Shown: in pieces, positions 30,782 through 31,102 of the stretch
How the letters are laid out: each line of letters opens with the position of its first letter
How positions within the stretch are numbered: position 1 is the first letter of the stretch
Virus genome (UHGV): UHGV-0144129
DNA from: a virus
DNA: 39,244 nucleotides
Direction: 5' to 3' (one strand)
Made by a program: the position numbers and the translations under genes
The notes under the pieces: generated by a model
Database searches by the model: none
Told to the model about the DNA's origin: nothing
The model's input: only the letters and a program-made list of their open reading frames with translations

Positions 30782-31102
30782 CAAAGAGTTCATTCCGGTT
30801 ATTAACCTGACTGGCTTGTCGTTAAATTAAACAGGTGGGGTGAGCTTTTATTTTGAGCAGTACGGCGTATGGCACATGCGCCGATAGCGGTCTGGATACG
30901 TTTAAGGGGCACCCTCCCTTGCTCGGGCAAACGAACCAGGTAGCCGGAATGTGCAAGTCGAGCGGTTTTATTCCGCGCACGGGGATTCACCATCCCGGCG
31001 ATTCGGTGTGACGCCTCGGAAGAGACGAGGGTACAACGATGAGAGCATTTATGGAGCCGCGACAAAGTGTGGCGCCTTAACAGGCTAAGTGCTCTCAGCG
31101 TT

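Follow-up and report, generated by a model that had tools for sequence, protein, structure and literature searches.

The stretch considered here, positions 30782-31102 on the plus strand, lies in a viral genome of 39,244 nucleotides (nt) (UHGV-0144129; the whole of this DNA is called the window) and contains a conserved structured RNA, referred to as the core, which is situated between a putative repressor-controlled promoter and a transfer RNA (tRNA) gene. The window is a phiV10/epsilon15-like (Uetakevirus) genome and the region under study is 99% identical to phiV10. The stretch sits in a 1.4-kb gap with minus-strand genes on its two sides: the portal gene (28775-30454), then a small gene (30469-30675), on one side and the large terminase gene (31888-33363) on the other. 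An earlier note on this DNA had described a GC-rich non-coding stretch immediately upstream of a tRNA, with an operator and a TTGACA hexamer at its other end. The position is borne out: a tRNA-Arg(UCU) gene (anticodon TCT; identified by ARAGORN, 73 bits against the Rfam tRNA model) occupies 31103-31179 on the plus strand, and both TTGACA (30744-30749) and an operator-like palindrome (30766-30780) are present. The GC richness holds relative to the immediate flanks (0.54-0.58 over 30800-31200, whereas the promoter region has 0.39-0.43 and the open reading frame, ORF, downstream has 0.40-0.42) but not relative to the neighbouring genes, whose GC content is similar to that of the RNA stretch.

A sigma-70-like promoter can be read on the plus strand at 30744-30772: TTGACA, a 17-nt spacer and a weak -10 hexamer, TACCTT, with a predicted transcription start at approximately 30779-30781. 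A strict promoter scanner did not call it, rejecting the weak -10 hexamer. The arrangement TTGACA-N17-TACC(T/C)T is also kept at related Uetakevirus loci. The -10 hexamer and the predicted start are overlapped by a perfect repressor-operator-like palindrome, TTACCTTTCAGGTAA (30766-30780). Its pattern, TTACC-N5-GGTAA, occurs 10 times in the window (at 10158, 11278, 11371, 12387, 12488, 30766, 33956, 33974, 38295 and 38357) against 0.77 expected, a number reached in none of 100 shuffles. Since the copies cluster at separate units (the immunity region, the RNA-tRNA unit, upstream of the terminase genes and near 38.3 kb), their distribution suggests that a single repressor controls several separate transcription units in the window. 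The stretch is predicted to provide the first modules of one of these, a repressor-controlled, rightward, early transcription unit.

Folding of 30782-31102 gave a z score of -2.99 for the plus strand, with none of 100 shuffles as good, and of -2.13 for the minus strand. The family-defining part is the core, about 175 nt at 30859-31034 on the plus strand, which comprises helices P1 to P5 and two proposed pseudoknots. Invariant blocks alternate with hairpins variable in sequence and length in an alignment of 12 sequences. The structure was written by hand and its pairs were counted on 40 representative sequences (alignment A2). Standard pairs make up 95.7% of the 1320 cells, a proportion that drops to 24-42% when the 3' partners are slid by one to three columns, and changes on both sides are observed for 12 pairs (82 cells); the observed values were reached by none of 500 shuffles. 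When the covariance model of the family, R1, is run on the window, the core is the sole match (147.6 bits, E = 2e-45).

The P1 hairpin (30863-30883) is formed by eight pairs between CGGCGUAU and AUGCGCCG around an invariant GGCAC loop. Its cells are paired in 97.5% of cases, and columns 9-21 are A-U in 20 sequences and G-C in 19. P1 also includes wobble pairs (39 sequences with U-G, 18 with G-U) that would become mismatches if the minus strand were read; therefore only the plus strand fits as the functional strand of the core. P2 (30887-30944) joins GC and UCUGG (30887-30895) to CCAGG and GC (30936-30944), and two of its positions covary: one is C-G in 30 sequences and U-A in 10, the second is G-C in 38 and A-U in 2. 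The tip of P2 (30896-30935) is variable in length and sequence, forming a three-way junction in the lineage of the window and a simple hairpin elsewhere. The near-invariant junction called block 2 (GGUAGCCGGAAUGUGCAAG, 30939-30957) is invariant in 12 BLAST-derived homologues and, among loci retrieved via another conserved string, block 1, shows only single-base variants. Pseudoknot 1 is proposed between GUGC (30951-30954) in this junction and GCAC in the P1 loop (30872-30875): the two segments are complementary in all sequences and never vary, so that this contact is beyond the reach of covariation. P3 (30960-30978; GCGG/CCGC in the window) is a hairpin present in every lineage with differing sequence and length; this poorly aligned part was left out of the pair count. 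Three pairs of the P4 hairpin (30982-30996, GGGAU/AUCCC) change on both sides. Its loop CACC (30988-30991) pairs with GGUG (31005-31008) to form pseudoknot 2 (30982-31008), in which 98.8% of cells are paired and a C-G pair (36 sequences) is replaced by A-U in 4, the cdtI type having AACC/GGUU. Finally, the P5 hairpin (31014-31030, CCUCG-GAAGAGA-CGAGG) carries a conserved purine-rich loop; 95.5% of its cells are paired and three of its five pairs change on both sides. All these elements are on the plus strand. RNAalifold proposed a long-range pairing of block 1 with block 2. The local P1 hairpin was preferred to it because its pairs covary perfectly from G-C to A-U, and of the long-range pairing only a loop contact of 4 bp, pseudoknot 1, was retained. 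The TGGCAC of the P1 loop was also considered as a sigma-54 -24 element and rejected by eye, as there is no TTGC at the right spacing.

The core is a genuine conserved structured RNA with a supported pseudoknot. The short internal inverted repeats pointed out in the earlier note match helices that covary across the 40 representative homologues, and the covariation analysis across relatives which it proposed shows that the structure is conserved. Its suggestion that the stretch is a structured leader co-transcribed with the tRNA, or a small RNA (sRNA), is supported by the common strand of core and tRNA, by the promoter overlapped by an operator and by the covarying fold. The remaining suggestion, that of a degraded element, is rejected, as phages of unrelated types share a conserved core in which substitutions are compensated.

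The part preceding the core (30782-30858, plus strand) is a lineage-specific 5' leader which, as judged by BLAST, is conserved among phiV10/epsilon15-like phages only; the epsilon15 match spans positions 34-116 of the query only. An 8-nt segment of the leader, CAUUCCGG (30791-30798), is a perfect complement of the invariant CCGGAAUG (30944-30951) of block 2, and the minimum-free-energy fold pairs 30788-30800 with block 2. No such pairing was seen among the other lineages inspected. It could represent an alternative, inactivating conformation predicted by the folding model, or chance.

The possibility that the stretch has no functional RNA at all, and is instead a small protein gene, a DNA-level site or decaying sequence, appears very improbable. 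The best candidate gene is the minus-strand ORF 30802-31065, which has a TTG start and would encode 87 amino acids (aa). A homologous region is covered by 'hypothetical protein' annotations in the GenBank records of mEp460, mEp390 and Ayreon, and the ORF has a weak match to phrog_6855 (E = 0.0016) limited to 21 residues, the only trace of the protein homologue that the earlier note had named as fatal to its proposal. The ORF has no Pfam match and its frame is not kept, the cdtI homologue continuing in a different frame from the window. The conserved blocks hold 1-nt indels, other indels are not multiples of three, and conservation is concentrated in junctions rather than in codon positions. 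Together with the compensatory changes and the strand-specific G-U pairs, these features argue against coding; a protein-coding function for the stretch is rejected on the basis of these comparisons, as the note had anticipated in finding no plausible ORF. At all 2470 places of its occurrence in Escherichia coli genomes (see below), and in the other records examined, the P1 reference genome included, the core is without annotation.

An Rfam 15 scan of 30782-31102, also proposed in the earlier note, returned no match at gathering thresholds, nor at E up to 10 with permissive filters. The block 1 and block 2 strings retrieved no paper in a full-text literature search, and the core is not described in the catalogues of new bacterial RNA motifs that were checked. 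The lack of an Rfam match, taken with the conserved structure, implies that the RNA family is uncatalogued. Two described RNAs were considered and rejected: svsR (PMC12803456) is a different RNA, of 77 nt, from the 3' end of a cI gene, and the probe sequence of PasB (PMC8550237) does not occur in any of the loci retrieved, the E2348/69 copy among them. From these sequence comparisons, the core is judged to belong to a previously uncatalogued RNA family and to be a module moving between enterobacterial temperate phages.

A sensitive blastn search identified homologues in 86 phage records, the conserved part running from 30862 onward. Identity is approximately 82% in the lambdoid phages cdtI, mEp460, Ayreon, 2H10, Stx2c, Stx2k and some Stx2a phages, 80% in P1, P7, D6, SJ46 and RCS47, and 71% in Salmonella, Klebsiella and Enterobacter relatives of epsilon15. 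Core homologues also occur in Klebsiella phage SopranoGao and in a phage reported on Stenotrophomonas. An exact search with the 19-nt block GGTAGCCGGAATGTGCAAG found at least 120 IMG/VR contigs, the matches listed falling into 41 clusters at 92% identity; searching with block 1 returned the same loci and four with single-base variants of block 2. The core is carried by 591 PLSDB plasmids, nearly all of P1-like phage-plasmid size, and by 1839 of 5426 complete E. coli genomes (2470 places). Among species-representative genomes there are 24 loci, 22 of which are in Enterobacterales genera; the other two are in metagenome-assembled genomes labelled Bacillota/Oscillospiraceae, which we take to be mis-binned. 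Scanning with model R1 locates a single copy in the window and a single copy in the complete cdtI genome.

The genomic context of the core is of three main types. In Uetakevirus the order is operator/promoter, leader, core, P6 hairpin, tRNA-Arg or a tRNA-derived unit, a small hairpin, two terminators (T1 and T2) and one accessory ORF. Lambdoid phages have it 100-200 nt past the gene of a CI-like repressor (helix-turn-helix and Peptidase_S24 domains), which has its own terminator; a promoter-like site precedes the core, in the position of promoter PL (cdtI, mEp390, mEp460, Stx2a_1447 and BUCT708). Over the contexts together, the core starts 6-123 nt downstream of a promoter-like site. Promoter-like sites with at least 9 of 12 matches are found within 160 nt upstream of P1 at 20 of 41 representative loci, compared with 2.1% of random windows. 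The first ORF of lambdoid loci starts 450-1100 nt after block 2. A strong intrinsic terminator separates core and first ORF at no fewer than 23 of the 41 representative loci, a lower bound because the strict terminator finder undercounts and misses four-U terminators such as the RprA-like ones. P1-like phage-plasmids carry the core alone (P1-P5), 14 nt past tRNA-Ile and approximately 100 nt before ban, in the C1-controlled ban operon. What follows the core thus differs between lineages, and the genes downstream are diverse, including phrog_4846, a Tad2-like gene, ban and yfdP/yfdQ-type operons.

In the window, the core is followed by the P6 hairpin (31033-31104, plus strand), in which ACAACG-A-UGAGAGCAU (31033-31048) pairs with GUGCUCUCA-G-CGUUGU (31089-31104) on either side of a variable insert, the two basal pairs using tRNA nucleotides +1 and +2. 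Over 18 sequence types, the P6 duplex energy averages -17.0 kcal/mol for cognate strands versus -12.1 for non-cognate strands. P6-like hairpins (CACAAC..GAGCGCA ... UGCGCUC..GUUGUG) recur in lambdoid leaders. In SopranoGao one precedes each tRNA or tRNA-like unit, and phage P1 (NC_005856), which has no tRNA after the core, has no P6; P6 is therefore most reasonably regarded as a leader hairpin belonging to the tRNA module. The stretch adjoins the 5' end of a co-oriented tRNA gene, as a tRNA 5' leader does, ending at 31102 where the tRNA starts at 31103, and this core-tRNA junction is shared by 28 loci. All nearby tRNAs are co-oriented with the core, and tRNA processing sites flank it at 45 of 132 loci. 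By analogy with other tRNA precursors, RNase P cleavage at the tRNA 5' end should set the 3' end of the upstream RNA at 31102, a step resting on general tRNA maturation biology.

Past the tRNA lies a hairpin, AUCACG...CGUGAU (31182-31202), which is also found at loci L048, L066, L105, L020 and L114. It is followed by two intrinsic terminators recognised by the terminator scan, T1 (31223-31264), a 14-bp stem followed by CUUUUU, and T2 (31343-31366), which ends 12 nt before a start codon. The ORF that starts there (31378-31797), the sole protein-coding gene of the unit, encodes 139 aa and belongs to phrog_4846, of unknown function (PHROG match E = 1.6e-88). All these features are on the plus strand, and the ORF can be reached only via read-through of T1 and T2. 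A Tad2-like anti-Thoeris gene (PF11195, E = 4e-26) occupies the corresponding slot of Klebsiella phage ST512-KPC3phi13.3 (L006, 2511-3032). From this comparison, the slot behind the two terminators looks like an exchangeable site for anti-defence cargo.

The non-coding modules between core and ORF also appear exchangeable. T1 sits where relatives hold an RprA-like module, consisting of the seed AAUUGCUGUGUGUAGUCUU and a terminator. L008 (2131-2250) matches the full RprA model with 50 bits, against a gathering threshold of 70, and the module is also present in L020, L114, L010, L081 and LLS (L170, approximately 31925-31945, minus strand). Phages with this module may encode a mimic of the host sRNA that regulates rpoS. 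The equivalent in the window (31208-31265) is diverged (GGUGCUUGGCGG) and has no RprA match. The slot of the tRNA-Arg is filled in relatives by a domain with a GUGGUG/CACCAC closing stem and hairpins resembling a D arm and a T arm, the loops of which are complementary to each other (GCUGAU/AUCAGC); an encoded ACCA follows some copies. This domain scores 45.8 bits in L121 (4242-4452) and 35.1 in ST64B (L171, 7465-7583) against the STnc100 model (gathering threshold 47 bits), and in E. coli E2348/69 (L172, 3234-3346) it is called a 'pseudogenic tRNA-Gly' by the annotation pipeline PGAP. These resemblances suggest that sRNAs of the STnc100/PasD type derive from tRNA genes. STnc100 and PasD are Hfq-bound prophage sRNAs (bioRxiv 10.64898/2026.05.13.724894; PMC8550237). 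As read from these loci, the region after cI is judged to be a shuffled array of RNA modules, with the core usually first, then leader hairpins, tRNA or tRNA-derived units, and STnc100-like and RprA-like modules.

The reading favoured for the core, tentatively and with less than moderate confidence, is that of a cis-acting processive antiterminator which, by analogy with known phage systems, would carry RNA polymerase through T1 and T2. It is favoured because the core occupies the place of nutL and putL and is usually promoter-proximal, and because long untranslated leaders containing strong terminators lie between the promoter and every protein gene. Upon derepression, the RNA would be transcribed from the 30744 promoter, and the core would fold on emergence and act in cis on its own RNA polymerase, alone or with host Nus factors. 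In the window phage the polymerase would then pass T1 and T2 (and Rho), allowing expression of the ORF. Where a lambdoid phage has no recognisable N gene, the polymerase would be able to continue through a long untranslated leader with its terminators and reach the early-left operon. RNase P acting at the tRNA 5' end would free an RNA of approximately 320 nt (30780-31102), or approximately 245 nt if the leader is trimmed. It is conceivable, with the same reserve, that the core would constitute a new functional RNA class acting on the host transcription machinery, an antiterminator working without an N protein and possibly using Nus factors.

Observations in favour of antitermination include the two tandem plus-strand terminators that separate promoter and sole ORF in the window; the loss in epsilon15, by one deletion joining to the sequence just past T1, of the 3' two-thirds of the core together with the tRNA and T1; and the presence of a boxA with a hairpin directly after the core in three lineages. 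The boxA of these lineages (L037, L050 and L093; 3 of 132 loci) is a perfect rrn-type UGCUCUUUAACAAUC located approximately 25 nt after P5. No N gene was seen in the cdtI genome or in the flanks of mEp460, mEp390 and Stx2a_1447 by annotation and ORF inspection, with no sensitive search. Phages of the mEp collection have been described as Nus-dependent (PMC11893012), and mEp390 and mEp460 are members of it judging by their names. LLS has no N homologue and an RNA antiterminator has been suggested by the authors who note this (PMC12315714, Genome Res 2025); both LLS and ST64B have the same yfdP/yfdQ-type early-left operon as core-carrying lambdoid phages. Rho loading on the RNA is disfavoured because of its GC skew of +0.10 (G > C), the stretch being G-rich and C-poor.

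Several points weigh against antitermination. There is one copy of the core per phage and none downstream of PR, as scanned with model R1 in the window and in the cdtI genome. The P1-like phage-plasmids, with hundreds of copies, have the core in the middle of an operon, with tRNA-Ile before it and ban after it; the ban operon of P1 shows no detectable terminator beyond the core, and its only strong one lies upstream of the core. LLS and ST64B were expected to carry the core; neither does, and both share the leader type and terminators, so that the core is not generally needed for read-through there and its necessity for this function is weakened. In the boxA lineages, boxA rather than the core could be responsible for antitermination. 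The downstream terminators double as 3' ends of sRNA-like modules (RprA-like and STnc100-like); therefore their presence alone does not call for antitermination. Finally, the transcript, its processing and the read-through in the window are all deduced from sequence only.

With regard to the organisation of these core-less loci, LLS (L170, 31731-32358, minus strand) and ST64B (L171, 7239-8053) have an untranslated leader of 630-815 nt composed of other modules, with no N annotated. The promoter-proximal slot of LLS is occupied by a different hairpin, AACCACCGCGCCUGAUGUGGUU, which also precedes the core in L093, L037 and L114.

Ranked just below antitermination, and nearly as likely, is a stable early RNA acting in trans. 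It is possible, if doubtful, that the core, with or without P6, is cut from its precursor and that its invariant junctions bind a conserved host or phage macromolecule. RNase P, acting on the tRNA or tRNA-like unit that follows, would make the cut, again as a doubtful possibility; in P1 the cut would come from tRNA 3' processing upstream. A role in host takeover or anti-defence is just as uncertain, the first position of the core then being that of the first gene of a non-coding RNA array. Such an RNA would account for a mobile module occurring in unrelated operons which are always repressor-controlled (the Uetakevirus unit, lambdoid PL and the P1 ban operon) and lying beside RNA genes (tRNAs, STnc100-like and RprA-like modules and, in P1, a DicF-like region). 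The tRNA processing sites flanking many loci and the anti-defence cargo in a relative's unit (Tad2-like) are in keeping with it. The P1 context, where the core is retained alone with no terminator downstream, and the neighbourhood of RNA genes fit it better than they fit antitermination. A supported pseudoknot and a near-invariant 19-nt block are moreover typical of protein-binding or catalytic RNAs, and the core may even have a wholly new trans-acting activity, such as that of a ribozyme or a host-factor decoy. Set against this, there is no known partner, stability and processing are deductions only, the core has neither its own terminator nor an evident single-stranded seed, and action in trans predicts neither the promoter-proximal bias nor the link to phages without a recognisable N.

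Two other functions in cis are unlikely. A riboswitch-like sensor would contain an aptamer for a metabolite, second messenger, tRNA or protein and, with the same low probability, would gate the terminators, tRNA 5' processing via P6 or ban translation in P1, thus coupling early expression to host state. The core has the multi-helix junction, supported pseudoknot, near-invariant junction nucleotides and variable peripheral helices of an aptamer, the sequence after it varies among lineages, and alternative pairings are possible for several segments: ACAAC and GUUGUGG, which make up the base of P6, CACCACAAC of the tRNA-like domain downstream, and the leader (30791-30798) against block 2. The genes downstream, however, are of inconsistent class and share no function, there is no candidate ligand, the family has a narrow distribution (Enterobacterales genera account for 22 of the 24 genome loci), and the terminators lie 200-500 nt away, with the tRNA module in between and without overlapping the aptamer. 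It is similarly improbable that the core is a mere structural scaffold, a stable 5' domain without a specific partner that shields the precursor from 5'-end-dependent RNase E decay and from Rho, or guides processing. Its location at the 5' end of the transcript in most contexts, its G-rich, C-poor composition and the arrays of processed RNA modules that follow it would suit this role. A simple hairpin would suffice for it, however; the core of P1 is not at a 5' end, and the invariant 19-nt and other blocks and the pseudoknots kept across phage types point to a sequence-specific interaction.

Returning to antitermination, the closest functional parallel is provided by putL and putR of HK022, cis-acting RNA-only processive antiterminators that need no dedicated protein factor (PMC9378689). 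Like the core, put occupies the PL position in a lambdoid phage that has no recognisable N, is promoter-proximal and upstream of terminators, and is a structured RNA with conserved nucleotides in temperate enterobacterial phages. Antitermination by put involves binding to the zinc-binding domain of the RNA polymerase beta-prime subunit and is also independent of Nus factors. The two RNAs differ in size (approximately 175 nt, five helices and a supported pseudoknot for the core; approximately 70 nt and two stems for put) and in copy number, one per genome for the core and two, after PL and after PR, for put. The contexts of the core mid-operon in P1 and in the Uetakevirus accessory unit are unlike those of put. 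Furthermore, put is factor-free, in contrast to the Nus dependence described for the mEp collection that includes mEp390 and mEp460 by name (PMC11893012). A comparison of the core with the HK022 immunity region (L013, L014) by blastn at word size 7 gave only a 16-nt chance match, and homology to put was rejected for lack of similarity. A second, putR-like copy of the core was likewise rejected by the R1 scan of the cdtI genome and the window.

Lambda nutL, as well as HK022 putL, occupies the PL position as the core does in lambdoid phages, and nut sites and ribosomal RNA (rrn) leaders, like the core, stand at the head of a long untranslated RNA. The 3' strand of P6, UGCUCU(C/U)..GUUGUGG, is reminiscent of a boxA followed by a GU-rich boxC. 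In the window this boxA-like sequence, UGCUCUCAGCG, lies inside helix P6 and differs from the consensus (U/C)GCUCUU(U)A. Since the segment is base-paired in most members, the window included, and its sequence changes together with that of its pairing partner, it was rejected as a true boxA. The nut and rrn sites contain no counterpart of the core, and neither N nor an arginine-rich partner was found for the core by annotation and ORF inspection.

Other phage RNAs share some of its features. The C4 antisense RNA of P1 and P7 and the CI antisense RNA of P4 are matured from precursors by RNase P, and C4 acts by base pairing. Like them, the core is an RNA of a phage immunity or early region, contained in a longer transcript with a tRNA-like junction, its maturation being predicted. 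In sequence and structure the core is unrelated to these antisense RNAs. Unlike C4, it has no evident seed, and the only Rfam C4 match in the window is at 11523-11607. STnc100/PasD and RprA have counterparts directly downstream of the core in relatives, as parts of one array; in the window the STnc100-like slot is held by tRNA-Arg and the RprA equivalent is diverged, and 30782-31102 itself has no match to STnc100 (RF02076) or RprA even at E up to 10. GOLLD and ROOL, which are known mainly from Firmicutes and from rumen or lake samples, are also phage-borne complex folds of unknown function with variable insertions, often next to or interleaved with tRNA genes. The core differs from these in being several-fold smaller, in having no Rfam match and in its almost exclusive association with Enterobacterales.

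Whatever its function, the core is an unannotated module present in approximately one third of complete E. coli genomes, in P1, in 591 plasmids, and in Stx2-converting and phiV10/epsilon15-like phages, and the covariance model and coordinates make the family searchable. If it were a true antiterminator, it would be, to our knowledge, only the third RNA class that reprograms RNA polymerase, after put and EAR. It would then explain early-left expression in many lambdoid phages without a recognisable N gene, as well as the way in which phiV10-like phages reach anti-defence genes behind terminators. It would also answer the question raised via LLS, itself core-less, of how early terminators are read through without an N homologue (PMC12315714). 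Should it instead act in trans, the core would be a new early RNA of phages, directed at a conserved target in the host.

A number of minor observations concern the modules around the core. In the three boxA lineages (L093, approximately 3345-3375; L037, approximately 12330-12360; L050, 123 nt past block 2) an A-rich stretch, a hairpin (AAGCGCCCAUAGGACGCUU) and the boxA replace P6; the order hairpin then boxA is the boxB-then-boxA order of rRNA leaders. Many small CCGG-GAAAGA-CCGG hairpins occur in L008 (1875-1893, 2318-2330 and 2385-2450) and L081 (4950-4965 and 5435-5500). This is the type of leader found in the phage reported on Stenotrophomonas, and the hairpins resemble both P5 and lambda boxB (GCCCU-GAAGA-AGGGC). 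In epsilon15 (L002, 2547-2639) only P1 and the 5' half of P2 are left, and its GenBank record has an 'RNaseIII' site annotated on the opposite strand at this remnant. T-arm-like fragments (CTGGTTCAATTCCAG, GGTCCGTTCGATTCGGAC and CCCGGTTCGATTCCGGG) are found in variable inserts, in the P6 insert of L007 and L011 and at 5285-5310 of L081. They appear to be remnants of decayed tRNA genes, at a locus that seems to gain and lose such genes.

Further Rfam matches were noted at the loci and elsewhere in the window. The tRNA-slot domain of L048 (original coordinates 2010-2105, minus strand) has a weak full-length match to Methylophilales-1 RNA (29.7 bits, gathering threshold 79.9), and in Enterobacter phage Tyrion (L004, 3208-3272) an int-alpA RNA (44 bits, gathering threshold 35.8) lies downstream of the unit. 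Matches above gathering thresholds in the window are isrK (11422-11498, 67.7 bits), C4 (11523-11607, 61.2 bits) and sar (14269-14336, 45.2 bits), a combination that points to an immI-type antirepressor control region in the window phage. An isrK-C4 pair is likewise located beside the cdtI immunity region (L003, 277-465, minus strand).

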